Source of the DNA: Candidatus Zixiibacteriota bacterium
GTDB taxonomy: Bacteria; Zixibacteria; MSB-5A5; UBA10806; 4484-95
Assembly (NCBI GenBank): GCA_029932605.1
Contig: JAOZPT010000028.1
Location: 1 to 30,289, forward strand
DNA length: 30,289 nucleotides
Direction of reading: 5' to 3'
This document shows positions 7,073 to 29,163 of this stretch, piece by piece. The position numbers and the translations under genes were made by a program. Positions within the stretch are counted from its first letter, which is position 1, and each line of letters starts with the position of its first letter. The notes beneath the pieces are model-generated. The model had not been told where the DNA came from. It did not search any database and saw only the letters and a program-made list of their open reading frames with translations.

Positions 7073-8518
7073 ATGGATGATGTGAAGAAAGCGGGCATGA
7101 TAGCCCTTGAAAAAGCTGTCAGTGCAGGGGCCAGCTATGCCGATTTCCGCTATACTTACACCGAGTCAGAATCGCTTTCCTATAATAATGGTGCACCAGA
7201 GAGTGTTGATGAAAGTCTTGATAAAGGATTTGGTGTTAGGGTTATTGCTGATGGTGCCTGGGGTTTTTGCAGTTCTGCTGATGTTACTGAGAATGAAATA
7301 ATTCGAGTTGCTGAAAAAGCTGTTGAGATAGCTAAAGCTTCAGCAATTTTACAAACAAAACCGGTGGAATTGGCTCCTATTGAAATATACACCGACTCGT
7401 ATATATCAAGCTTTAATGTTGACCCTTTTAAAATTTCCACGGCTGAGAAACTTCAGTATCTGGCATACCTTGACGAGTTAATGTCCCAAAATGAGGGTAT
7501 TAAATACCGTAACAGCTTTCTTGATTTCCGCAAGATCAATAAAAACCTCCTTAGTACCGAGGGTTTAGATATCCATCAGCTTATCGTTCAGAGCGGTGCT
7601 GGAGTTAGTGTAACCGCCATGAGATCTCACCGTGAACGCGCCAGAAGGAGTTACCCGGCCAATGAGGGGATTTTTGAATGCAAGGGTTATGAGCTTTTAG
7701 ATGAGGTCGATTTCGAGAATAATATACCGATAATTTGCCAGGAGGCGGTGGCTCTTTTGGAGGCTGAACCCTGTCCAAGTAAAACTTGCGATATAGTGTT
7801 GGATGGTTCGCATGTATCTCTTGTTATCCATGAATCAATAGGCCATGCCCTCGAGCTTGACCGTGTATTCGGTGGTGAACGCAATTTCTCCGGTACAAGT
7901 TTTGCCACGCCGGAAAAACTGGACAATTTTAAATATGCATCGGACATCGTCAGTGTTGTTGCCGATGCAACCTCACCACATGGGCTGGGCAGTTTTGGTT
8001 ACGATGATGACGGGGTTAAAGCGCATGAGTCAGATTTGATAAGAGAGGGCATTTTGGTAGGCTATCTTTCATCAAGGGAAACTGCCAAGCGTATAGGTAA
8101 ATTATCTTCCGGGGCTATGCGGGCTGATGGCTGGGGTAATGTCCCGATTGTTCGGATGACCAATACTAACCTCAAACCGGGCAACTTGACCTTGGATGAG
8201 CTCATATCGGGGGTTGATGATGGGCTCTATATGCAAACTACATCATCGTGGTCGATTGACGATACCCGTGAGAATTTCCAGTTCGGTTGCCAGATAGCCT
8301 GGGAGATAAAAGGTGGTAAGCTAGGGAAGATGATTAAGAATCCAACCTATGGAGGAAACACTGTCTCATTCTGGAATTCCTGTGATGGTATAGGCAATCG
8401 ATCTTTATGGAGAGTTTGGGGCACACCTAACTGTGGTAAGGGGCAACCTGGTCAAAATGGTCGTGTGGGGCAGGGGGCAGCACCGGTGAGGATCAGGAAT
8501 GTGAAGGTTGGTTTCTGA
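7073..8518 (+). CDS. tldD: TldD family metalloprotease subunit (copy 1, no signal peptide)
   Basis: GFGVRVIADGAWGF, HESIGH metal motif, YDDDGV, PIVRMTNTNL, CGKGQP. Confidence 0.92.
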   Translation: MDDVKKAGMIALEKAVSAGASYADFRYTYTESESLSYNNGAPESVDESLDKGFGVRVIADGAWGFCSSADVTENEIIRVAEKAVEIAKASAILQTKPVELAPIEIYTDSYISSFNVDPFKISTAEKLQYLAYLDELMSQNEGIKYRNSFLDFRKINKNLLSTEGLDIHQLIVQSGAGVSVTAMRSHRERARRSYPANEGIFECKGYELLDEVDFENNIPIICQEAVALLEAEPCPSKTCDIVLDGSHVSLVIHESIGHALELDRVFGGERNFSGTSFATPEKLDNFKYASDIVSVVADATSPHGLGSFGYDDDGVKAHESDLIREGILVGYLSSRETAKRIGKLSSGAMRADGWGNVPIVRMTNTNLKPGNLTLDELISGVDDGLYMQTTSSWSIDDTRENFQFGCQIAWEIKGGKLGKMIKNPTYGGNTVSFWNSCDGIGNRSLWRVWGTPNCGKGQPGQNGRVGQGAAPVRIRNVKVGF

Positions 8519-9843
8519 TGAGCCGGATAATCGATATATTTGAACAAAGTTTAAAAAAGTCCACAGCCGACCAGACCGAGCTGGTTTGTGAAAAAGAGGA
8601 ATTTTATCTTACTCGTTTTGCTGAAAGCCGAATTCACCAGAACATCGGCAGAGCGGACCATACGCTTTGGTGCCGAGCTGTTATTGGAAAGAAGATAGGC
8701 GTTGCCAAGACTAATATCCTCTCGCAGGAGTCTATAAATGAACTTGTGAAAACAGCCATAGAAATTTGTTCTCAGCAGGTTGAGAATCCGCGATTCACAT
8801 CATTGGTAAGCTCGCCTAAGGCTCAACAGACAGAAGGTTTTTATAAATCGACTGCTGAGTATTCCCCGCTTAATAGAGCTAAAGCTGTAAAGACAATTGT
8901 TGATATAGCCGGCCAAGATAAGCTGGCTACAAGTGGTATGTTTCAGACTTCTACAACCGAGCTTGTGGTTGCCAATTCACTTGGCACCCGTCAACAGGGG
9001 AAAGTCACCGAGGCGAAAATATCGATTACTTTAAGCGACAATTCCGACCGCTCGGGATTTGCCCAGGCTTATTCAAGGGATATAAAAGATATTGATTTTA
9101 GGGATGTTGCCAATCGTGGTGTGCAAAAAGCATCCAGGCCGAATAAACAAGTCGAACTTCAACCAGGAACATACACTGTGATACTTGAACCTGAAGCGGT
9201 AGCTGATTTTTTACTGTTTTTGGGATTTCTTGGTTTCGGAGGTAGGGGGATGTTTAACCACAGAAGTTTTATGGCAGATAAAATTGGCTCTGCAATTATG
9301 AGTGAGAATGTTACAATCGCTGAAGACCCTATTAATCCGGTTATTCAATATATGAGTTTTGACTATGAGGGGGTTCCCCGCAGTAAGGTTGTGATTGTGG
9401 AAAAAGGAATTGCTAAGGGTGTTGTTTATGATAGCTACTATGCACACTTAAACAATGTTCAATCGACCGGTAACGCTCTTCAGCCTGATAATAGCTATGG
9501 TCCTTATCCCAAGGCAATGGTTATGGATGCAGGTGATAAATCCCTTGATGAAATGATTGCCTCAACCGGGCGTGGAATATTGATTACGCATTTCTGGTAT
9601 CTAAACTTCATCAATCCCATGCTTACCACTGTAACTGGCACAACCCGCGATGGAACTTTTTTAATTGAGAATGGGAAAATAACTGCTCCTGTAACCGATA
9701 TGAGAATATCTCAATCGATGCTTGAGGCTTTTAATAACGTCGAAGCTCTTTCGAAACAACGTCGGTTGGTTCCCAAGTTTGGTGTTTTGATGTATGTTCC
9801 GGCGATGAAAATTGACAATTTTAATTTTGTTTCTTTAGCGTGA
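8518..9843 (+). CDS. TldE/PmbA family subunit (copy 1)
   Basis: TRFAESRIHQN, PGTYTVILEPEAV, FDYEGVP, TGTTRDGTFLIENGKI; no HExxxH; TGATG overlap with tldD. Confidence 0.88.
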   Translation: MSRIIDIFEQSLKKSTADQTELVCEKEEFYLTRFAESRIHQNIGRADHTLWCRAVIGKKIGVAKTNILSQESINELVKTAIEICSQQVENPRFTSLVSSPKAQQTEGFYKSTAEYSPLNRAKAVKTIVDIAGQDKLATSGMFQTSTTELVVANSLGTRQQGKVTEAKISITLSDNSDRSGFAQAYSRDIKDIDFRDVANRGVQKASRPNKQVELQPGTYTVILEPEAVADFLLFLGFLGFGGRGMFNHRSFMADKIGSAIMSENVTIAEDPINPVIQYMSFDYEGVPRSKVVIVEKGIAKGVVYDSYYAHLNNVQSTGNALQPDNSYGPYPKAMVMDAGDKSLDEMIASTGRGILITHFWYLNFINPMLTTVTGTTRDGTFLIENGKITAPVTDMRISQSMLEAFNNVEALSKQRRLVPKFGVLMYVPAMKIDNFNFVSLA

Positions 9844-10668: not shown

Positions 10669-11532
10669 ATGGCATTGACTGTGGCAGAGCTTATTGCCGA
10701 GGGAATAGGCTGTCTTAAATCTGCCGGTATCGATGATGCTGAAATTGCCCCACGTTCAATTCTTCAATATCTTTTAAAACAAACTTCGTCCGGTTTGCAG
10801 GTTATCATCGACAAAGCTGTTCCTGAAGAAACCGCTGAGCTTTATAGAAAGCTTGTTAAAAAAAGATGTGGTCATGTTCCAATACAATACATTTTAGGTG
10901 AGGTTGAATTTTATAATGTCAAGCTTGGGATTGATAGGCGGGCAATGATACCTCGCCCCGAAACGGAGATTCTGGTTGAAAATACGATTTCTATTCTTAA
11001 TAGTTTTTCCAATCCTTACGTTCTTGATATCGGAACTGGTTCGGGCAATATAGCAATCGCTATCGCTAGTAATGTCGATAATGTAAAAATAAAGGCTGTT
11101 GATATCTCGGACGAGGCTTTAAATTTAGCTGTTGAAAACGCACGTTTGAATGATGTATTAGATGATATTGAATTTATTCAGGATGATTGTCTGCGAGAAC
11201 GTTTCTGGGAAGAAGTTGGCAGGTTCGATGTCATCGTCTCGAACCCGCCTTACGTTGATGCTGGAGATTTTGATAAGTTACAACCTGAAATAAAACTTTA
11301 CGAACCTAAAATAGCGTTGATAACCCCCGGTAACCCACTACTGTTTTTTAAGGCTATTGCTCAACATGGGAGATGTGCTCTTGATGTCAATGGTGCTATA
11401 TGTTGTGAGGTGGGAATTGGTCAGGCGTTGAAAGTTTCTGAGATATTGAAAAAATACCTTGGCGACGTCGATTTGAAGATAGTAAAAGACTTAACTGGCA
11501 TCGAGAGAGTCATTATCTGCCGCTTGATTTAA
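10669..11532 (+). CDS. prmC: release factor glutamine methyltransferase
   Basis: PIQYILG, IPRPETE, LDIGTGSG, VSNPPY; start moved to ATG 10669. Confidence 0.95.
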   Translation: MALTVAELIAEGIGCLKSAGIDDAEIAPRSILQYLLKQTSSGLQVIIDKAVPEETAELYRKLVKKRCGHVPIQYILGEVEFYNVKLGIDRRAMIPRPETEILVENTISILNSFSNPYVLDIGTGSGNIAIAIASNVDNVKIKAVDISDEALNLAVENARLNDVLDDIEFIQDDCLRERFWEEVGRFDVIVSNPPYVDAGDFDKLQPEIKLYEPKIALITPGNPLLFFKAIAQHGRCALDVNGAICCEVGIGQALKVSEILKKYLGDVDLKIVKDLTGIERVIICRLI

Positions 11533-11724
11533 AGATTGACTTATTAACAGTTTTTATAATGTTTGCGAAAACATCGGCATTTTTACATGCTTTTGAAACA
11601 TCAATATAAGTCTGCGTATATATCCTGTGAATTGTAACTTTATCATGAGAAAATAAAAAAACATATCAAAATTATTTTTACCATTTTTTAATCATGCTTT
11701 TTGTTTTGAATGTATAAAAAAAGT

Positions 11725-11753
11725 TTGACAAAATTTTAAAACAAGTCTAAAAT
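11725..11753 (+). promoter_or_regulatory. sigma-70-type promoter of the enhancer-binding protein gene
   Basis: TTGACA (11725-11730), 17-bp spacer, TAAAAT (11748-11753). Confidence 0.7.
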
Positions 11754-11764
11754 CAATTTTGTAA

Positions 11765-13576
11765 ATGAATGTTAGGATAAAAAAGAGAAGTAAACATTTC
11801 GCTGAAATTTTAGAGGGGTTTAAAACTAGTAGCATTGTTAAAGCTTCTGTATTATGTAACCTGGTTTCTTCTTTAAAAAATGATTGCCGGGATATTGTTA
11901 AAAGTGGCCATAAACAGAATCAACGTCTTAAGCAAGTTGTATCTGATATCGACGATTTGGAATTGTCGATTAATGAACTTTCAGATTATATCACTCAGGG
12001 TACAGGTAAACTTGTCAAGGAATATAGCTGGCTTAAAAACAAATTGGGACTGTTGGAAGATGAGCGGCAAAATTTTAAAATCTTGTATGAGCTGTCCTCG
12101 ATTCTTGATAAGGAGACAGAGCTTGAAAAGCTTCTGGATGCCGTTATAAATTCGATAAAGAAAATTCTTGATGCTGAATATGGTGTTATCAAGCTTATCG
12201 ATGAAAAAAGGAATATCAGGTTTAGTAAAGAGGTCACTTCAAAAAATAATGATGAGGTATTACTTGAGTTAAAAGATAAGGTTGTTGATGCTGCCGTAGA
12301 TAGTAGCAGTTCCATAATTATGAACAACCTTATTCTTAAAAATAAAAAGAATGGAGATCGCGGTAAGTTTGGCTCGGTTATGTGTCTGCCGTTAAAGTCG
12401 GATGAGAATATTATCGGTACCATGTATTTCGGGGCTTATCGAAAAAGTTTCACTGCGGATGAGGCCGATCTCTTGGAGGCTCTTGGCGAGAGGATAGCAA
12501 AGACCGTGGAAAGCAATTTTAAATACAACCAGGTGATCGAGTCCCAGCAGAAAATACTGGCCGATTTGCGAAACAGATATGATTTTGATGAGATAATCGG
12601 CAACTCGCCCGAGATGGCCGCTGTTATGTCAACCATCTCTGACGTTGCCGAAAGTGATACCACGGTTTTAATCGAGGGTGAATCTGGCACAGGTAAGGAG
12701 GTAATAGCCAGGGCCATACATAAAAACAGTCTCAGGGAAAATGATCCTTTCATCCCCATCAATTGTTCGGCCATTCCTGAGACGCTTCTTGAATCCGAAC
12801 TGTTTGGTTATGAGAAAGGAGCGTTCACTGGTGCTGTTAGCCGCAAAGAAGGCAAATTTGAGCTGGCCAATGGTGGAACGATTTTTCTTGATGAGATTGG
12901 TGAGCTTTCCATGGCCCTTCAGGTGAAACTGTTAAGGTTTTTACAGTCACATGAATTTGAACCTCTGGGTTCTAACAAACTCATTAAATCCGATGTCAGG
13001 ATTATTGCAGCGACTAAAAGGGATTTGACTAAAATGGTAGAAGAGGGGAAATTTCGCGATGACCTTTTTTACAGGATAAACGTTATAGATATTTTCATCC
13101 CGCCCTTAAGAGAACGCAAGGGGGATATACCGCTTCTTGTAAACCACTTTATTAAGAAATACATCGATAAGAACAAAAAAGAAATCGACGGTATTAGCAA
13201 AGAGGCTTTAAACATCATTGAACAGTTCAGTTTTCCCGGTAATGTCAGAGAACTTGAGAATGTGATAGAGCGAGCAGTTGTTCTCTGTAAAAATAAAATA
13301 ATTGGTGTGGATGATCTTCCTGATGTCATAAGATCAGCTGTAAAGGAAGGTTCTGGTGTTTTGCCACAGAACTCTGAACAGCTCAGAAACATTAAAAAAA
13401 AGCTGATACAAGATTCCGTAGAACCGCTTGAAAAAGATTTCATCATCAGGGCGTTAAGAAAGACTGGAGGGAATATATCTGAGGCAGCACGAGTCACACA
13501 GATGGGCCGCAGGCAATTCCAACGCCTGATGAGACGTTACAACCTTGAGCTTCAGGATATTTTTAATCCGGCATAG
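11765..13576 (+). CDS. sigma-54-dependent transcriptional activator (N-terminal helical region, GAF, AAA+, Fis-type HTH)
   Basis: [64 protein letters not shown]-like [24 protein letters not shown]. Confidence 0.95.
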
Positions 13577-13596
13577 CAATTAAAATTTTATGCAAC

Positions 13597-13614
13597 TGTG
13601 ACATTGTTGTCGCA
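13597..13614 (+). promoter_or_regulatory. candidate upstream activator sequence 1
   Basis: TGTGAC-N6-GTCGCA dyad, about 170-185 bp upstream of the -24 box. Confidence 0.65.
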
Positions 13615-13647
13615 TCAATTTGTGTAATTTTTTACTGGGTGTGATGC

Positions 13648-13660
13648 TAACTTGTTGATA
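13648..13660 (-). promoter_or_regulatory. IHF consensus site
   Basis: Minus strand TATCAACAAGTTA matches WATCAANNNNTTR exactly. Confidence 0.55.
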
Positions 13661-13665
13661 TATGA

Positions 13666-13683
13666 TGCGACTGCTATGTCGCA
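13666..13683 (+). promoter_or_regulatory. candidate upstream activator sequence 2
   Basis: TGCGAC-N6-GTCGCA with perfectly inverted half-sites, about 100-115 bp upstream of the -24 box. Confidence 0.7.
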
Positions 13684-13779
13684 ATTTTTTATCTTGTTAT
13701 ATTTCAATGGGTTCAGGGCTATATTTATAACCTCTTAACCAACATATCGTTACGATTATTTGAAATTAAAATAGTAATA

Positions 13780-13796
13780 CTGGCATATATTTTGCG
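13780..13796 (+). promoter_or_regulatory. sigma-54 (-24/-12) promoter
   Basis: CTGGCATATATTTTGCG: GG-N10-GC (GG 13782-83, GC 13794-95), directly downstream of an EBP gene. Confidence 0.85.
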
Positions 13797-13819
13797 TTTA
13801 TTAAGTTACAGGTATTTGT

Positions 13820-14215
13820 ATGGGCAATAATAGGTTAGAAAAAGCTACAAGCCGAGGGCTAAAAAGCCTGCAAAATCAGGTCACCGAGGCTGCTCTTGAG
13901 GTGCAAAAAAACATAGGACCGGGGTTTTCTCCGCACGATTATTGCCAGGCTTTAGCATACGAGTTTCAATTGCGGGATATACCGTTCGAGCGGGAAAAGA
14001 ATGTTAAGCTTTCTTATAAAGGTAATGTGGCTGGTCATTATAAACTCGATTTTGTTGTGAGGGAAAGGATGATATTAACAATCCTTTCCGTAGATGAGAT
14101 CTCCGATTCTGACAAGTCGAAGATGAGGAATTTCTTAAGGGCGTTGAATATTAAACTGGGGATGATGCTTAATTTTTCTCGGGGGAAGGTTGAGATTAAA
14201 GCGGTTTATAATTAG
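13820..14215 (+). CDS. GxxExxY family protein (PD-(D/E)XK-like fold) with degenerate motifs
   Basis: AALEVQKNIGPGF..Y..ALAYEF..IPFEREK..YKG..LDFVV..LGMMLNF fits the family pattern, but the signature E and the ExK are substituted. Confidence 0.85.
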   Translation: MGNNRLEKATSRGLKSLQNQVTEAALEVQKNIGPGFSPHDYCQALAYEFQLRDIPFEREKNVKLSYKGNVAGHYKLDFVVRERMILTILSVDEISDSDKSKMRNFLRALNIKLGMMLNFSRGKVEIKAVYN

Positions 14216-14253
14216 GCAAATCGTTCAATTTTAAACTATGAAAGGAGGTGACA

Positions 14254-14358
14254 ATGCCAGCTAAGAGGAAGAAAAAAGCAACCAAGAAAAAAGCGACTAA
14301 GAAGAAAGCAACCAAGAAAAAAGCAACAAAGAAGAAAAAAACTAAGAAACGTCGCTGA
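14254..14358 (+). CDS. 34-aa Lys-rich histone-H1/protamine-like peptide (not in the ORF track)
   Basis: SD AAAGGAGGTG (14241-14250), ATG 14254, MPAKRKKKATKKKATKKKATKKKATKKKKTKKRR, tandem stops TGA TAA; repeat units differ at synonymous sites. Confidence 0.85.
   Translation: MPAKRKKKATKKKATKKKATKKKATKKKKTKKRR
14269..14337 (+). repeat. 15-bp imperfect tandem repeat encoding KKKAT
   Basis: AAGAAAAAAGCAACC / AAGAAAAAAGCGACT / AAGAAGAAAGCAACC / AAGAAAAAAGCAACA / AAGAAGAAA. Confidence 0.9.
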
Positions 14359-14412
14359 TAAACTGGTTGTTATAGTATAATTGAACATTATTAAATATAA
14401 CCAGAATGGTTG

Positions 14413-14444
14413 ATAAGCCCGCCAATGACGGGCTTATTTTATTT
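14413..14444 (+). terminator. intrinsic terminator of the sigma-54 operon
   Basis: ATAAGCCCG-ccaatga-CGGGCTTAT followed by TTTATTT. Confidence 0.8.
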
Positions 14445-14482
14445 GCTTTGATATTTTAAAAAACTTTGTATATTTTTATATA

Positions 14483-14875
14483 ATGATATTTTGGCGTTAT
14501 CATTTCCCGGTTATCCTATATGCCGGCTTGATTTTTTTAGCTTCTTCGATTTCGTCTTTACCGACAAAAGTGCCTTTTTTCACCTTTAGGGATAAACTAA
14601 TACATTTTTTAGAATACGCTGTTTTCGGTTATTTATTATGGCAATCGGTAACTAGATGGAAAATCGATACCAGCCTGGCAGGGTTAATGTTGTTGGCGCT
14701 GTTGCTTGGGACGGTTTATGCCGGAAGCGATGAAATCCATCAATATTATGTCCCCGGTAGAGATGCTAATGTTTTCGACTGGATAGCTGATGTTATAGGG
14801 CTTGCGGTTGGTCTGACAACAGCTTATATTTTTACAGGAAGGAAGGTTTCGTTTGGAGGCAATAACAAGGATTAA
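14483..14875 (+). CDS. VanZ family membrane protein
   Basis: IFLASS, DKLIHFLEYAVFG, SDEIHQYYVPGR, DWIADVIG. Confidence 0.9.
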   Translation: MIFWRYHFPVILYAGLIFLASSISSLPTKVPFFTFRDKLIHFLEYAVFGYLLWQSVTRWKIDTSLAGLMLLALLLGTVYAGSDEIHQYYVPGRDANVFDWIADVIGLAVGLTTAYIFTGRKVSFGGNNKD

Positions 14876-15007
14876 ATGAGATATGGAATAACTTATAATT
14901 GGTTAAATTAAGTCGATAATTTAAAAGTCGGGTTAAACCGGCTATATTTTTAGGAAGGAAAACTTATAAATTATGGTCAATCTTTTATACGGAATAAAAA
15001 GGTTCTA

Positions 15008-16837
15008 ATGGTTTATTTGAAAACCGCATACCGTACTCATAGTTGTGGTGAACTCGACATCAAAACGGTTGGTGAAGAGGTTGTTCTCTGTGGTTGGGTA
15101 GCTGGTTGGCGCAATCTCGGTGGAGTGATATTTATCGATCTTCGAGACCGCTGGGGTATTACACAGATAACTTTTAATCCTCAACTATGTTCACATGACT
15201 TAGTCGATGCCGCCAAGAAGTTGCGTTATGAGTTTGTAGTCCAGGTTAAGGGTAAGGTTCGGCTTCGGCCCGAGGAGGCAATAAATCCGAGAATGCCAAC
15301 AGGGAAAATCGAGATTTCAGCAAACAGTCTGAAGGTTTTAAGCATATCTGATACGCCGCCATTTCTAATTGAGGATGATGTTGATGCTTCAGAGGAGCTT
15401 CGTCTTAAATACCGATACTTAGATTTACGCCGACCTATATTGAAGGATAAATTACTGCTCAGGCATAAGGCTATACTGGAGATAAGAAAATATCTCGACA
15501 GCTGGGGGTTTGTTGAAATAGAAACACCTTTATTGATAAGGTCAACGCCGGAAGGAGCCAGGGATTTTGTTGTACCCTCACGTGAACGGCCTGGTTGTTT
15601 TTATGCCTTACCGCAATCGCCACAGCTTTTCAAGCAGATACTTATGATTTCTGGGTTCGACAGATATTTTCAGATAGCCCGATGTCTCCGCGATGAAGAC
15701 CTTCGCGCCGACCGTCAGCCTGAACATACACAGATAGATATGGAAATGGCTTTTGTCTCAATGGATGATGTTTTTGAGGTCGTTGAAGGAATGATGGTGC
15801 ATCTTTATAATAAAGTTTTAAATATAAAACTTGATGCGCCGTTCCCCAGATTGACGTTCGATGAGGCAATGGCTAAATATGGTACTGATAAACCCGATTT
15901 ACGTTTTGGTGTGGAGATTGTAAATCTCACCGATGATGTTGCTCATTGCGGATTTAAGGTTTTTGAGAATGAGGCATCAAACGGTGGTTTTATTGGTGGG
16001 TTGCTTTATAAAGGGGGAGCTGGTCTTTCACGGAAGAATCTTGATGAACTTCAGGAGATTGTGAAAAAAAATGGTGGCAAAGGGCTTATACACATTAGAC
16101 TTAAATCCGAGGGCATTAAGTCTCCATTGAGCAAGTATGTTGATGAGGAAAAAATTGGACGAATCGTAAATAAGATGAATGCGTCTGAGGGTGACCTTAT
16201 CCTGATTGTTTCTGCTCGCAGATTGTTAGCTTTGACCTGCTTGGGAGCTTTAAGGCTTGAAATAGGTAAAAGATGCAATTTAATAGATAAAAAATTGTGG
16301 AGGTTTGTCTGGGTGTATAAATTCCCTTTGTTTGAATATAATTCCGATTTAAAACGTTTCGACGCTATGCACAATATTGTAACCTCTCCATGTGAGGATG
16401 ATATCGGCAAACTCGATGAGGGCTTCAACTCAGAGCTACCGTTTGATGATGAAAACCACCCCTGGGCAAAGATTTATGCTAACCAGTATGACCTCGTCTG
16501 CAATGGGGTTGAACTGGCCTCGGGTGGTATAAGGATACATCGCTCGGATTTGCAGATGAAGATATTAAAGATTCTGGGGATGTCAGAAGAGCGTGCTGAA
16601 AGGATGTTTGGTTTTTTGTTGAGAGCTTTTCGTTATGGTGCACCACCTCATGGGGGTATTGCTCCCGGTCTCGACCGGATAATTGCTCTTATGACGAACA
16701 GCCCATCCATCAGGGATGTTATAGCTTTTCCAAAAACAACGGGTGGCCGTTCTTTAATGGATGAAACTCCAGCCCCTATAGATCCACAGCAATTGGATGA
16801 ACTCGGCTTACAAATTAAAAAGAAACCGGTGGAGTGA
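15008..16837 (+). CDS. aspS: aspartate--tRNA ligase
   Basis: [76 protein letters not shown]. Confidence 0.97.
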
Positions 16838-23845: not shown

Positions 23846-25171
23846 TTAAGAACCCACCTTCATCCTTTTCACCATCAATGTGGGAGAATTGAACCTTCTG
23901 TAAAAAGTGATATCATCACAGATCGCTACCAGACCATCTAAAATCTCCTCAACACTGGCGGCGATAGTAACATTAGCCACCGGTTTTATCCATTTGCCGT
24001 TTTTAACAAGTATACCATTTATGCCAGCTGAATACTGTCCATTTATACTGTTAAGTCCCCAACCCTGGGTATCCTCAACGATGATACCTTTCTTGCACGA
24101 TGCCACAATATCCTCGACCTTATCATTGCCTGGAGCAATGTATAAATTACTTGGCCAGATATCGGGGAAAGAATTATAGTCATGTCTTAAGGCGGAGGCG
24201 GTTGAACCAACCCCAGCTTTAGCAGCGTTTTTGGTATCATACATAAAATTACAGAGAATACCCCTTTCTAAAAGAGTCAGTTTCATTGAGGCTGTTCCTT
24301 CATCATCGGCAGGACGGCTGGCGATTCCTCGAGACATTAAAGCGTCATCGTAAACTGTAAAATTATCCACAGCAACCCTTGTCCCCTTTTTCCCGGCAAG
24401 GAAAGATGAACCTTTAAGGTTATTTTCTCCGTTGAGAGCAAAACTTAAACCCCAGAGAATGGAAAGGGCAGCTTGGGGTGTAAAAATTATTTCATAATCC
24501 CCGCCCGTAACAGTGGTGCCACCGATAAGCCTAACAGCCCTGGAGGCAAACTGTTCTACAATTTCGTCAGGTTTGGGTAGGTCACTAAAATGCCGGGCAG
24601 ACACGTCCCCCTCGCCTGGATACATCTCGCCCTTTTTCGAAGCCACAACCGATATCTTAACATTATAAGAAGTTGATTCATAACTCACCTCCACACCCTT
24701 TGAATTAACAAGCGTATGAGTGGTTATTGTTTCATTATAGGAGACGCCGTTTGATTTTTTAATAAGAGGATCATATTTTAAAGCCATCTCTTCGAGATTT
24801 AATAAGTAATCGATCTTACTTTCGACCGGTATGTCTATGAAGCTGGAATCGAAAATATCTAAATCGTATTTATAGTTTTGCGGTCCCGGTAAAGTGGCAA
24901 ATTTATCTTCACCAGTCTTCTTGGCAAGCTTGGTTAACCGGGAGATTATGTTGTCTATTGCTGAATTAGATGTGTCGGTAGTGTGGGCAAATGCCGATTT
25001 CCCAAATGAAAAAAACCTGATAGCCAGACCACCTGGAGTTGCCTTTTTAACTGATTCAACTTTGCCATCTCTTACAGATATCGATAATGTTTTTTGAGAA
25101 AGGTCAAAGACCTCAGCCATCTCAGCACCTGCCCGAATACACTTATCGAGTATTCTATTTATGGAATTCAT
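23846..25171 (-). CDS. TldE/PmbA family subunit (copy 2)
   Basis: GAEMAEVF, PADDEGT, LLERGIL, GQYSAG, PVANVTIA; no HExxxH and no signal peptide; downstream of tldD copy 2. Confidence 0.88.
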   Translation of the reverse strand: MNSINRILDKCIRAGAEMAEVFDLSQKTLSISVRDGKVESVKKATPGGLAIRFFSFGKSAFAHTTDTSNSAIDNIISRLTKLAKKTGEDKFATLPGPQNYKYDLDIFDSSFIDIPVESKIDYLLNLEEMALKYDPLIKKSNGVSYNETITTHTLVNSKGVEVSYESTSYNVKISVVASKKGEMYPGEGDVSARHFSDLPKPDEIVEQFASRAVRLIGGTTVTGGDYEIIFTPQAALSILWGLSFALNGENNLKGSSFLAGKKGTRVAVDNFTVYDDALMSRGIASRPADDEGTASMKLTLLERGILCNFMYDTKNAAKAGVGSTASALRHDYNSFPDIWPSNLYIAPGNDKVEDIVASCKKGIIVEDTQGWGLNSINGQYSAGINGILVKNGKWIKPVANVTIAASVEEILDGLVAICDDITFYRRFNSPTLMVKRMKVGS

Positions 25172-25180
25172 TGTTTCCTC

Positions 25181-26683
25181 CTAAACGCTTCCACCTACCG
25201 TTATCCCTTTGGCCACCCTGACTGTAGGTATGCCGGCAGTTACCGGTACCCATTGACCTTTTCCGCATATTCCAACTCCAAGCCTGAGATCGTTGCCCAC
25301 AGCATCGATATTTGATAAAACATCAATACCTTTGCCGATTAGAGTTGCACCCGACACCGGTGTTGTCACTTCACCATTTTCAATCAAGTAAGCCTCACGC
25401 ACTATGAAGTTGAACTGGCCTGATATTATATCAACAGAGCCACCTGAAAGAGCTTTAACATAAATACCCTTTTTAGTGTCAGCAATGATATCCTCGGGAT
25501 TTGAATCACCGTTATCCAGGAAAGTATTGGTCATCCTCGGGATAGGATAATGCCTATAAGATTCCCGACGGCCATTGCCAGTGGGTGACACCCCCAACAT
25601 CTTTGACGAGATTAAATCTTGCATGAACCCAATAACCACACCCTTTTCGATAAGCACGTTTCTCCGACCGAACGTACCTTCATCATCGAACTCAGTAGTG
25701 CCGCGTGCGTTTGGCCAGGATGAATCATCAATCAATGTTACCAACCTCGAGCCCACTTTTTTGCCGAGTTTGTCAGCATATATCGAGGTCCCCTTGTAGA
25801 TGAAATCAGCTTCAAGACCATGTCCAACAGCTTCGTGGATGAGCACTCCTCCCCAGCCGGGGTGAAGGACAACTGGCATTACTCCTGACGGTGCCGGCTT
25901 AGCCTCAAGCATATTAACCGCCTCTTCGGCAGCATTAATAGCAGCCTCAACGATATCATTGTCATCAAAAAATTCGAAACCCTGATGCGCCGAAATGCGA
26001 TACCTTCCCTGGTGGCGGACGCCATTTTTTTCAGCTAAAACTTGAATCACAACCCATATTAACGGTATTTCGTTTTCTATGCGAAGGCCATTTGAATTAG
26101 CGATGCTTCTCTTTCTTAACTGGTCATAGTAGGTAATATCAACCTGTTTTATGTTCGAGTTGTAATTTCTAGCAACCTCCTCGGCTTTTTGTACAAGTTC
26201 CATCTTCTGTTTTTCGCCTACCGTCTCAATCGGTATTTTTACGGTAACGGTTCCGGGGGACTCAACCCTGGCAGGTTCAGCGATCTTGGTTACCTGGTTG
26301 ACTGAAGCGATGTGGGCAGATGTTTTAGCGGCCTCGAGAGCGCCGGAGAAATCATAATCGTTAATGTAAGCATAGCCATTCTTATCACTATCGACAGTTC
26401 TAACACCCACACCTTTCGAGAGACCAATAGTGGCTGTGGAAAATAATCTCTCGGACATCTTAAATGATAATGATGTTACTTGTTCGATGAAAACCTCAGA
26501 GAAATCACCACCCCGTGTCAAGGCATTTGATAGTATGGCGGCAATCTGTGTTTCATCGAAACCGGGTTTAACTGCTGGTGAACAACCGATGTCGGCCAAC
26601 ATGCTGAAAAGTCCTGGTCCAACGGCGGCTGTGGCAGATATGGCTGCCGTTTTCTTTAAGAACTCTCTTCGGTCTATTTCCAT
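25181..26683 (-). CDS. tldD: TldD family metalloprotease subunit (copy 2) with twin-arginine signal peptide
   Basis: DRREFLK signal; GGDFSEVFIE, HEAVGHGLEAD, FDDEG, TGNGRRESY, PRMTNT, CGKGQ; SD GGAGGTGA. Confidence 0.92.
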   Translation of the reverse strand: MEIDRREFLKKTAAISATAAVGPGLFSMLADIGCSPAVKPGFDETQIAAILSNALTRGGDFSEVFIEQVTSLSFKMSERLFSTATIGLSKGVGVRTVDSDKNGYAYINDYDFSGALEAAKTSAHIASVNQVTKIAEPARVESPGTVTVKIPIETVGEKQKMELVQKAEEVARNYNSNIKQVDITYYDQLRKRSIANSNGLRIENEIPLIWVVIQVLAEKNGVRHQGRYRISAHQGFEFFDDNDIVEAAINAAEEAVNMLEAKPAPSGVMPVVLHPGWGGVLIHEAVGHGLEADFIYKGTSIYADKLGKKVGSRLVTLIDDSSWPNARGTTEFDDEGTFGRRNVLIEKGVVIGFMQDLISSKMLGVSPTGNGRRESYRHYPIPRMTNTFLDNGDSNPEDIIADTKKGIYVKALSGGSVDIISGQFNFIVREAYLIENGEVTTPVSGATLIGKGIDVLSNIDAVGNDLRLGVGICGKGQWVPVTAGIPTVRVAKGITVGGSV

Positions 26684-26787: not shown

Positions 26788-26815
26788 TTGACATAAATAT
26801 TTGGCTTGGTAATAT
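26788..26815 (+). promoter_or_regulatory. probable promoter of the M50-HlyD gene
   Basis: TTGACA (26788-26793), 16-bp spacer, extended -10 TGgTAATAT (26807-26815). Confidence 0.55.
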
Positions 26816-26877
26816 TACATATATGGATTAGTGGATTTTCAAAAGGCATTTTAATAAAAATCCATAAGGAGGCTTTT

Positions 26878-29163
26878 ATAACAAAGCGGTTTTTTAGGTT
26901 CAGAGATGACCTGGAAATATCCCAACAGGAATCGTTTGGAGTAAAGTTCTATATCATTAAGGATCCTATCAGTGGTAAGTTCTATCGCTTAAAGGAAAGA
27001 GAATATTTTATCGCCAACCTTTTTGATGGTCGAAATGATGTTGATACCATCGCCGAGAAATTTTCTGCTGAGTTTAACTTGAAAATAAACGCCGAACAGA
27101 TTGAGATTTTTGGAAAGAAACTTTCCGATACCGGCCTTGTTGAAAAGATGGAGTTTGCCAGTAAACCCACCGGTATAGGTCGAAAAAGGTCGCTTTTAGG
27201 GAAACTGCTTTTTATAAAGATAAAAGCTTTCAATCCCGAAAAACTGGTTGAAAGAACCTATAAACTGGCCCGCCCTTTTTACAGTAAATCTGCTGTAAAA
27301 CTGTATATCCTGCTTGTTATCCTTGCCGCCGTAACGACAATAGCAAACTATACCGATTTGAAAAACCAGGCCCTGCGCTTCTTCGTCCCCGGTATCATAC
27401 CGCTTGTCTGGGTGACGATACTTTTCGTAACCCTTCTGCATGAGATGTCTCATACCTATAGCTGCCGGTTACAAGGGGGCAGAGTGACTGATATGGGATT
27501 TTTGCTTCTATATTTCCAACCCTGCTTTTATAGCAATGTCTCCGATGCCTATCTTTTTCCTGAGAGGAAAAAACGGATAGCGGTTACCATCGCCGGTATA
27601 ATCAGCCAAATAGTTGTCTGGGCGCTGGCAGTTTATATTTGGCGGATAACCTCGACCGACAACATAATAAACAGCATAGCCTTCATAGTAATTGTTCTTT
27701 CGTTTATAGGTATTACATTCAATTTAAATCCGCTGTTAAAATTAGATGGTTATTACTTTTTGGTGGATTTCTGGGAGATACCCAATTTGCGATATAAAGC
27801 GTTTTTGTTTTTACGACAAAAACTATTGGGTTTAGCCCCCGACGAACAACGTTTGCAGGTAACACGCCGTGAGCAGAAAATCTTTTTATATTATGGTACG
27901 GCAGCATTGATTTACTCGGGTATATTGATTGGATATATAGTGTATCGAGTAGGGAAATTCATAAACGGTCAGTTTGGCGTTTTTGGAGTGGTATTTCTGG
28001 CAATGGTTTTATTATATTTGGTTTTCGATGCTATGAACAAAGGGAAGATATTTCAGGTGGCATATAACCAGAGAGGGGCAATACTTAAACCCGGACGACT
28101 GCTGACATCCGGCGCCGTGCTGGTTGTTATCTTACTGGCACTAATCTTCATAAAAGCTCAATTACGAATAACAAACAATTGTTTGATTCTGCCCTTAGAG
28201 CAGGTTAACCTTCGCTCAACCTCACCCGGTTCGGTAGAATTGTTGGTGGAAAGAGCAAATGAGAAAAAGAGATTAAAGCAATTTCAGCTGGTAGGCCAGG
28301 ATTTCTCGGTTCTTTCAATTGACCCCAAGTTAAAAGTAGGTGATACAGTCAAGTCCGGTGACCTGATAGCCAGCATTGAATCTAACATTTACGAATCTCA
28401 GAAGCTTGAGCGTTACGCTAACCTTCAGAGAGCCAGAAGGCAGCTTGACCTTTTAGAAAAAGGACCTCAAATCGAAGAAGTAAAGCAGACCGAGGATATA
28501 ATAAAACAGGTTCGCTTAAAATTTGAAAAATCGTCTCGTGACCTGCTTCGCGCGGAGAGTTTATTTGCCAAGGGGATGATTTCGGCTGATGAAATCGACG
28601 ACACCAGAACGGCAAATCAGGTGTTGAAATCCGAGCTTGATTTTTACAAAAACCAGCTTGCCCTTTTAAAGAGGGGAGCCCGTCCCGAGGAGCTCGATAT
28701 GGCCCGGGCTCAGGTCAGCCAACTTGAGGCCAAACTCAAACATATGGAAAGCCAGCTTGAACAAACGATAATAGAATCGCCTATCGACGGAATCGTCACC
28801 AAGGTAAACGAGGACAACACAATTATTTCCATCGCCCGATTGGATACGGTCAGGGTTCGGATATATGTGCCTGAAAAAGAGATTTCGGTGGTTTCCGCTG
28901 GCAATAAAGTCAAGATGAAGGTGCGCTCTTTCCCCGGATTGGTTTATTCAGGGATTGTCACCCGAATCGATCCTCTTGTGGTGGATGACACTGAGCAAAA
29001 GCCGGTGATAGTAGTAACCGCCAATGTGGCAAACAGCGAGGGGCTTTTAAAACCCGGTATGACAGGCAAAGCCAAAATCAACTGTGGGAAAAAACCGTTA
29101 TACCGGCTAATTCTCTGGCGGTTGGTGAGATACTTGAGAGTTGAGTTCTGGTCATGGTGGTAA
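26878..29163 (+). CDS. PqqD/RRE-like domain + M50 site-2 peptidase + HlyD-type membrane fusion protein
   Basis: N-terminal FRDDL..YIIKDP..FDG..L..GLV; HEMSH; NLNPLLKLDGY; coiled coil with GARPEEL; IESPIDGIV; LKPGMTG. ORF track starts at TTG 26806; proposed start ATA 26878. Confidence 0.85.
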   Translation: MTKRFFRFRDDLEISQQESFGVKFYIIKDPISGKFYRLKEREYFIANLFDGRNDVDTIAEKFSAEFNLKINAEQIEIFGKKLSDTGLVEKMEFASKPTGIGRKRSLLGKLLFIKIKAFNPEKLVERTYKLARPFYSKSAVKLYILLVILAAVTTIANYTDLKNQALRFFVPGIIPLVWVTILFVTLLHEMSHTYSCRLQGGRVTDMGFLLLYFQPCFYSNVSDAYLFPERKKRIAVTIAGIISQIVVWALAVYIWRITSTDNIINSIAFIVIVLSFIGITFNLNPLLKLDGYYFLVDFWEIPNLRYKAFLFLRQKLLGLAPDEQRLQVTRREQKIFLYYGTAALIYSGILIGYIVYRVGKFINGQFGVFGVVFLAMVLLYLVFDAMNKGKIFQVAYNQRGAILKPGRLLTSGAVLVVILLALIFIKAQLRITNNCLILPLEQVNLRSTSPGSVELLVERANEKKRLKQFQLVGQDFSVLSIDPKLKVGDTVKSGDLIASIESNIYESQKLERYANLQRARRQLDLLEKGPQIEEVKQTEDIIKQVRLKFEKSSRDLLRAESLFAKGMISADEIDDTRTANQVLKSELDFYKNQLALLKRGARPEELDMARAQVSQLEAKLKHMESQLEQTIIESPIDGIVTKVNEDNTIISIARLDTVRVRIYVPEKEISVVSAGNKVKMKVRSFPGLVYSGIVTRIDPLVVDDTEQKPVIVVTANVANSEGLLKPGMTGKAKINCGKKPLYRLILWRLVRYLRVEFWSWW

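Follow-up and report, generated by a model that had tools for sequence, protein, structure and literature searches.

A conserved sigma-54 unit for a lysine-rich peptide and a degenerate GxxExxY protein in Zixibacteria, with a candidate feedback loop

Activators of sigma-54 promoters can be controlled by direct contact with a partner protein, and some of these partners, i.e. PspA, HrpV and FleN, are encoded within the regulon of their own activator. The described pairs include PspF-PspA, HrpS-HrpV, FleQ-FleN and NifA-NifL (excerpts of PMC10084136). In the RtcAB system, nucleic-acid enzymes of the regulon bind the N-terminal domain of the activator RtcR and feed back on it (excerpts of PMC9650030). 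The chlamydial protein Hc2 consists of lysine-rich pentamer repeats in variable number (excerpts of PMC2848022), and its gene hctB is controlled by sigma-28, with a sigma-54 dependence that is only indirect (excerpts of PMC10597470). The GxxExxY proteins (PDDEXK_3) are listed with unknown function in a survey of their fold (excerpts of PMC3424549). Here we describe a locus that combines related parts. It lies in the window, i.e. the 30,289 nt of contig JAOZPT010000028.1 of a Candidatus Zixiibacteriota bacterium, an uncultured sediment bacterium with a genome of 2.53 Mb. Within 2.7 kb the locus contains all parts of a circuit: an activator gene, two enhancer dyads, a sigma-54 promoter, a degenerate GxxExxY gene, a gene for a lysine-rich peptide and a terminator. 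The circuit is real and conserved and, as far as we searched, undescribed. We propose, with a probability of about 0.45, that the GxxExxY protein is a regulon-encoded feedback partner of the activator and that the Hc2-like peptide is a polyanion-binding effector.

The sigma-54 unit and its cognate activator

The unit comprises the following features; the predicted sigma-54 transcript runs from 13807 to about 14444 (~640 nt).

11725..11753, + strand: sigma-70-like promoter of the activator gene, TTGACA-17-TAAAAT, 11 of 12 positions matched, top of 18 in the scan; function inferred
11765..13576, + strand: enhancer-binding protein of 603 aa with N-terminal coiled coil and matches to GAF, sigma-54 AAA+ and HTH_8 domains
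11990..12124, + strand: coiled coil leading into the GAF domain (residues 76-120), candidate contact of the GxxExxY protein, eroded in the lineage that lost it and weakly indicated by complex prediction
13505..13525, + strand: recognition helix of the helix-turn-helix (HTH) domain, GRRQFQR in the window, co-varying with the dyad type
13597..13614, no strand: distal enhancer dyad TGTGAC-N6-GTCGCA, 185 nt 5′ of the promoter GG, position kept in relatives
13648..13660, − strand: exact match to the IHF consensus between the dyads, role uncertain
13666..13683, no strand: proximal enhancer dyad TGCGAC-N6-GTCGCA, 116 nt 5′ of the promoter GG
13781..13795, + strand: sigma-54 −24/−12 promoter TGGCA-N6-TTGC, predicted start at 13807
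13820..14215, + strand: degenerate GxxExxY (PDDEXK_3; PF13366, TIGR04256) protein of 131 aa with a weak ribosome-binding site
14242..14251, + strand: Shine-Dalgarno (SD) motif of the peptide gene, AAGGAGGTGA
14254..14358, + strand: peptide of 34 aa with Lys/Ala/Thr pentamer repeats (19 K and 3 R), the constant output of the circuit
14412..14446, + strand: intrinsic terminator, with −17.1 kcal/mol and z −3.4 for 14412-14438

A profile search of 285 genomes of the phylum retrieved the degenerate GxxExxY protein from 52 genomes of 8 of the 20 families, always as a single copy at one position. The scores were at least 161 bits, compared with 102 bits or less for canonical copies, which is a clean split. 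Among 1.84 billion representatives, three single-domain proteins of the degenerate type scored at least 132 bits, with canonical ones below. In 40 relatives examined, a gene for a lysine-rich peptide followed the degenerate gene at 21 of 21 loci, and none was present at the single canonical GxxExxY locus. A scan of species genomes yielded 47 loci, all of which have the promoter box GGCAY-N5-TTGC and 28 of which have the activator gene next to it. They carry the titles Zixibacteria (25), uncultured Ignavibacteria (15), uncultured bacterium (6) and Terriglobales (1); loci under the other titles branch among Zixibacteria in the tree, and these titles are probably submitters' labels. These loci overlap with the 52 genomes and, having been chosen by a fixed peptide pattern, are no test for more distant subfamilies. 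The activator orthologue has the same family distribution and is present in 50 of the 52 genomes, cut at contig ends in two of them. When the dyad pair alone was used for the scan, 62 metagenome loci were found. A box lies 94-100 nt downstream in 16 of them, 15 of which lead to a peptide gene (13 with and 2 without GxxExxY), and the sixteenth stops at the contig edge. The module is patchy, as neither gene was detected in G001, G008, G017 and G023 with the queries used.

The activator has the Walker A and B motifs, GAFTGA, arginine finger and sensor II of a AAA+ domain and a C-terminal HTH. GAFTGA is found in 52 of 52 orthologues and a typical Walker A in 50 of 52. None of the named NCBIfam activators (NifA, RtcR, PspF, NorR and others) was above its cut-off among the 25 matches listed, the highest being NifA with 425 versus 529. 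The nearest solved structures of the GAF domain are generic GAF domains (4mcw, Nlh1, PDE5 and NifA) and point to no ligand. A search of the Atlas with residues 1-125 returned only coiled-coil matches with low scores.

Apart from these two dyads, no perfect TGYGAC-N6-GTCRCA site occurs in the genome of 2.53 Mb, where 0.35 sites would be expected. Of 60 GGCAY-N5-TTGC boxes, this promoter alone has close upstream dyads. There is no further dyad with at most one mismatch genome-wide that would indicate a wider regulon; one site with three mismatches is near another box. The genome contains rpoN.

The pairing of activator and promoter was evaluated by comparing recognition helices with dyads at 27 of the 28 linked loci (one was left unscored). 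Helices with [KR]Q are paired with TGCGAC dyads in 16 of 16 loci, and those with [VM]E with TGYAAC dyads in 11 of 11. Because helix and dyad switch together at all 27 loci, the activator can be assigned to this promoter. The tree needs only two changes for this switch, so that the pattern counts as about two independent events rather than 27. The rule correctly predicted the activators that are not linked to their cassettes: in family f19, RVELHR was found in 11 of 11 activators whose C-terminus is present, in keeping with the YAAC dyads of the f19 cassettes, and the G004 activator has RKQFQR together with GCGAC dyads. The helix of the window activator is absent from all 13 other activator-like matches in the genome.

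An earlier note, made from the sequence of the window, had listed most elements of the unit, and every one that it listed was found in the window sequence where it had been placed. The descriptions of the activator with intact GAFTGA, of the two dyads, of the sigma-54 promoter and of the terminator were correct, and the relatives' loci support the view of a self-contained, co-conserved unit with its cognate activator (box in 47 and peptide in 46 of 47 loci). The IHF site is retained less well. It is an exact match in the window, but the consensus is common (262 matches in the genome), and at the equivalent position a match with at most one mismatch exists in just 4 of the 47 loci, a weak positional signal. 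Two genes of the HU/IHF family are present in the genome.

Two further observations concern the dyads. At 17 loci of the clade with an unlinked activator (L032, L035-L037, L042, L045-L049, L051, L052, L054, L055, L057, L062 and L064), a third conserved box, TGTAACA-N5-ATGACA, is located in the transcribed leader about 47 nt past the promoter GG (23 nt in L052); judged from its position, it is a possible repressive site for the activator. The same dyad pair also occurs on some metagenome contigs (L177, L180, L189, L225 and L230) in arrays with a period of about 145 nt and without activator or promoter, and these arrays are an unrelated repeat element.

The lysine-rich peptide and the degenerate GxxExxY protein

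At all 47 loci GGAGG is followed by a reading frame with at least 45% Lys/Arg. In 46 cases it is a typical lysine-rich peptide gene; in L053, two extra bases past the start lead into an arginine-rich frame, which is either an assembly error or a recent break. The family has lengths of 13-146 aa (median 29) and contains 54.5% Lys, 16.5% Ala, 13.6% Thr and about 0.1% acidic residues. The lysine codon AAG is favored over AAA (581 to 322). Constant composition combined with a freely varying length is consistent with a non-specific polycation. The earlier note had called the window peptide protamine-like and had drawn a loose analogy to Hc1/Hc2. The length of 34 aa, the 22 Lys/Arg residues and the strong SD motif were confirmed, and the Lys/Ala-rich pentamers in variable number support the analogy to Hc2; the peptide is of the H1/Hc2 type and not of the arginine-rich protamine type.

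The peptide is the constant output of the circuit, because one lineage has lost the GxxExxY gene and retained activator, promoter and peptide. Specifically, G002, G006 and G003, which belong to the window's own family, have kept activator, dyads, promoter, peptide, terminator and vanZ, and their leaders of 163-238 nt are without GxxExxY. Two metagenome loci likewise are devoid of GxxExxY and have all remaining parts. G027 has two tandem sigma-54 cassettes, the first with the peptide gene only and the second with both genes. Visual inspection of the leaders in this lineage suggested a vestige of GxxExxY in G002, which was rejected as not significant (E 0.64).

Anti-SD hexamers between the GxxExxY stop and the peptide start were observed in 13 of 26 loci with long gaps, compared with about 1 in shuffled sequences. 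This pattern suggests translational coupling of the two genes; the gap in the window has no such hexamer. Further genes with an MPAKKK start in families f8, f12 and f19 (11 loci) were rejected as members, as they encode other small proteins and lack a sigma-54 box. Unannotated proteins of 34-65 aa with the same start behind GGAGGTGA (L147-L154, L162 and L170-L172) mostly contain CxxC...CCG and by this motif are probable small metal-binding proteins. Some of the L147-L172 genes follow genes that we take to be rubrerythrin-, peroxiredoxin- or ferritin-like. The window's genome has a second lysine-rich gene (L026, 1596-2018, − strand) with pentamer repeats and a folded, presumably SWIB-like C-terminal part, at which no sigma-54 box was seen.

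The GxxExxY protein passes the cut-offs of PF13366 (91.1 versus 22 bits) and TIGR04256 (97.1 versus 35 bits). Its predicted structure has the alpha-beta-beta-beta-alpha-beta core of PD-(D/E)XK proteins, with a predicted local distance difference test (pLDDT) value of 91. The top structural matches are PD-(D/E)XK proteins, i.e. the Cas4 protein SSO0001 (Z 7.6, root mean square deviation 3.1, 98 aligned residues), tied with R.SwaI and 3ijm. Foldseek with the same model returned nothing below E 0.001, no solved structure related by sequence was found, and none of the PADLOC defense models matched at E 0.1. The ratio of nonsynonymous to synonymous substitution rates (dN/dS) reveals strong purifying selection, with a median of 0.04 and a maximum of 0.35 in the 64 of 1128 pairs that have a dS of 0.1-1.5.

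The window protein has lost the glutamate and the lysine of ExK, the glutamate of GxxE (giving GxxPxxY) and the QxxxY pair. A canonical D-ExK is present in 0 of 48 degenerate proteins versus 90 of 102 canonical ones, and the QxxxY glutamine is replaced by Lys or Arg in 48 of 48. Different clades have lost different residues (22 patterns over 10 sites, with residue 77 varying between D, E and Q), which suggests relaxed catalysis. These replacements indicate that the protein has probably lost its cleavage activity. The earlier note had stated the loss of the catalytic motifs correctly; its term "dead" is likely but not certain, because a migrated active site is possible (see below).

Most tandem GxxExxY proteins (P0003-P0031 and other tandem matches) have an intact first and a degenerate second domain (37 of 44). 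The arrangement suggests an asymmetric dimer as the working form of the family, and the degenerate subfamily may possibly originate from such a second domain. A heterodimer with a canonical GxxExxY protein was ruled out for the window, the genome having no second copy.

Proposed feedback on the activator and alternative explanations

In the proposed mechanism, the activator would very probably be made from its own sigma-70-type promoter, bind both dyads and open the sigma-54 promoter, yielding one transcript of about 640 nt. From the strongly translated second gene a disordered polycation would be produced, which rather likely binds a polyanion irrespective of sequence, in the way of Hc2 and H1 tails; chromosomal DNA would be the likeliest target. 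The weakly translated first gene may give rise to a nuclease-fold protein that binds its own activator at the coiled coil and at the entry to the GAF domain, so that a feedback loop would arise as in PspA-PspF or RtcAB-RtcR. The feedback would more likely be negative than positive, and it would cap the dose of a potentially toxic polycation. The anatomy, the cognate pairing, the peptide as constant output and the selection on GxxExxY can be read from the sequences; sigma-54 transcription, abundant peptide, polyanion binding and partner binding are what we infer from them.

Two lines of evidence point from the GxxExxY protein to the activator. The first is the fate of the activator after the loss. 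Five activators of the loss lineage were compared with 44 from GxxExxY bearers (three of uncertain status were set aside and one duplicate was dropped). They deviate at 4-6 of 9 conserved columns of the coiled coil, versus 0-3 in the bearers, whereas the deviations in the ATPase match those of the family (11 versus 11-14). The conserved coiled-coil residues include Y87, K91, E100, R101 and Y108. When compared with 40 outgroup orthologues, residues 84-112 have an identity of 0.38-0.42 in the bearers and of 0.17-0.27 in the loss lineage; for the ATPase it is 0.63-0.65 in both groups. In sliding windows the largest drops are at residues 91-120 (−0.17) and 76-105 (−0.21), compared with at most 0.07 anywhere in the bearers. 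A second drop is found at the helix that exits the GAF domain; G002 and G006 show no erosion of the GAF core. The second line is a complex prediction for the GxxExxY protein with two copies of activator residues 1-270. The complex score was 0.58 versus 0.32 for the best control, the runs agreed in at least 85% of the contacts, and the pLDDT of the partner was 81, so that the model weakly suggests binding.

Several results weigh against the proposal. For calibration, 116 of 157 solved pairs attained the complex-score mark, as did 2 of 215 mismatched ones, and values up to 0.60 comprised 18 of the 157 solved pairs and both mismatches; the score obtained here falls where the tool is more often wrong than right, and no interface was returned. 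The five activators form one clade (SH-aLRT, the Shimodaira-Hasegawa-like approximate likelihood ratio test, 88), and because the loss is confined to it, the erosion of the coiled coil is a single event. One of the genomes, G007, was placed with the losers by phylogeny and by a negative search in a genome that is 88% complete, and its cassette was not seen. The GAF domain is also eroded in the g4 branch, which fits a general decay of the input region. No activator orthologue was found in two of the 52 cassette genomes (G258 and G260, which are 81 and 85% complete). With the Hc2 and H1-like models PF07382 and NF038053, the best of 6 peptides scored 19.3 versus 40 and 24.9 versus 80 bits, respectively, and the window peptide matched neither. 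Finally, 47 of 48 degenerate proteins retain K/R101 together with one acidic residue at 77 and another at 98/99, so that a migrated active site is possible. The evidence for feedback consists of one loss event and one weak prediction.

The same circuit could operate with RNA, ribosomes or polyphosphate instead of the chromosome as the target of the peptide, which appears unlikely. The shortest peptides, 13-17 aa, are short for DNA bridging, the MPAKKK start also occurs on unrelated small proteins, and composition alone picks no polyanion. Pentamer repeats with a tenfold range of lengths, however, mirror Hc2 (excerpts of PMC2848022) and argue against a fixed ribosomal site, and the longest peptides weakly match the H1-like models.

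Rather unlikely is the model of the earlier note, in which both products bind nucleic acid as a joint nucleoid-condensing or silencing pair. It is consistent with the co-transcription of both genes in 46-47 of the 47 loci, with the PD-(D/E)XK fold and with conserved basic residues of the GxxExxY protein (R52, K60, K63, K67, K101 and K107; net charge of the window protein +6). The mean net charge of the 48 proteins is, however, −0.9, the peptide stays where GxxExxY is lost, the first cassette of G027 encodes the peptide only, and the erosion of the coiled coil would have no explanation. The notion of a DNA-binding output of both products was thus not upheld.

An active nuclease is improbable. 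Its catalytic residues, D/E77 with D98 and either K89 or K101, would have migrated to the core helix that comes second, and the circuit would cut or trim nucleic acid that the peptide protects or packs. Migration of the catalytic E or K to this helix is known from PD-(D/E)XK proteins (excerpts of PMC3424549), the selection on the protein is strong, and, in addition to the triad kept in 47 of 48 proteins, E38 is present in 29 and K89 in 32 of 48. This is opposed by the absence of D-ExK from all degenerate proteins, the variation at residue 77, the clade-specific losses, and the window copy itself, which is devoid of E38, E87 and K89.

It is quite improbable that GxxExxY is a chaperone or antidote of the peptide, for which its conserved acids (E27, E48, E57, E73, D98 and E125), its first place in the transcript and the anti-SD hexamers described above could be cited; the peptide persists without it, the window has no anti-SD, and a weak versus a very strong ribosome-binding site would make 1:1 binding unlikely. 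A passenger without a role, i.e. a formerly mobile gene that inserted into the peptide gene's leader, could be imagined from the multiple transfers of the canonical family (excerpts of PMC3424549) and the loss in one lineage, but is largely refuted by the low dN/dS and by the occurrence of the gene as a single copy, always at the same position, in 52 genomes from 8 families.

The feedback proposal could be extended to a homeostat for chromosome coating, which is speculative and rather unlikely. The pseudonuclease would sense exposed or damaged nucleic acid via its old cleft, with the invariant K101 replacing the metal, and would bind or release the coiled coil of the activator to set the polycation dose; the peptide would mask the nucleic acid and thus turn the loop down. 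If true, bacteria would have a linker-histone tail under signal control with a pseudonuclease as its sensor, and the control of micro-polycations by sigma-54 would recur as a design among uncultured phyla.

Genomic setting and comparison with described systems

According to the gene calls of the window, the unit is flanked by prmC on one side and by vanZ-aspS on the other. The sigma-70-like promoter ends 12 nt 5′ of the activator ATG; the predicted start is about 5 nt ahead of the ATG and no SD motif is present (11725-11765), i.e. the message would be near-leaderless. The promoter scan found a second sigma-70-like promoter 3′ of the terminator. A terminator-like hairpin was identified by a strict script in 32 of 46 scorable related loci. 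Immediately 5′ of the terminator (14399-14411) is a small hairpin with ACC-RGGAT-GGT kept in five aligned family members. Rfam had no match in 11400-15100 at E 1. No RNA data set was among 17 sequencing runs listed; of four DNA read sets, two span most of the cassette almost unchanged, which confirms the assembly only. Elsewhere in the window, two distinct TldD/PmbA pairs lie on opposite strands within 20 kb (7073-9843 and 23846-26683), and a 785-aa protein (26806-29163) has weak PqqD-like and M50 peptidase matches joined to an HlyD membrane-fusion domain and looks like a component of peptide export.

With the proposal, a member of the large uncharacterized GxxExxY family would for the first time have a concrete role that can be tested, and there would be a natural example of a nuclease fold turned transcriptional partner. 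That an unannotated lysine peptide of 13-146 residues matters enough to be served by an activator and a promoter of its own, in eight families of slow-living sediment bacteria, bears on DNA protection or silencing in such cells. The two residues of the recognition helix that switch along with the enhancer sequence provide a ready-made code for specificity.

No description of this combination of parts was found in the literature searched, which lacked most subscription journals and supplements; as far as searched, the combination is new, whereas the regulatory logic is of a known kind. The GxxExxY protein exceeds both family cut-offs and shares the predicted fold of its family, but it belongs to a separate subfamily (at least 161 versus at most 102 bits) without D-ExK and QxxxY, which is single-copy and fixed in a sigma-54 operon. 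The peptides share variable numbers of lysine-rich pentamers with chlamydial Hc2 (HctB) and the H1-like proteins of Burkholderia and Bordetella, and control by an alternative sigma factor with hctB; they are far shorter (median 29 versus 165-237 aa), score below the family cut-offs and have a nuclease-fold partner that is missing there. In comparison with RtcR-RtcAB, the activator has GAF and a coiled coil instead of CARF, the unit contains no rtcA or rtcB, ligase or cyclase, and the PADLOC RtcR matches to the activator span only ATPase and HTH. The likeness to PspF-PspA, HrpS-HrpV, FleQ-FleN and NifA-NifL is the control of an activator by protein contact, here a predicted binding; in contrast to the PspF-PspA type, the partner has a PD-(D/E)XK fold, the candidate contact is a coiled coil that precedes a GAF domain, and the circuit produces a micro-polycation.

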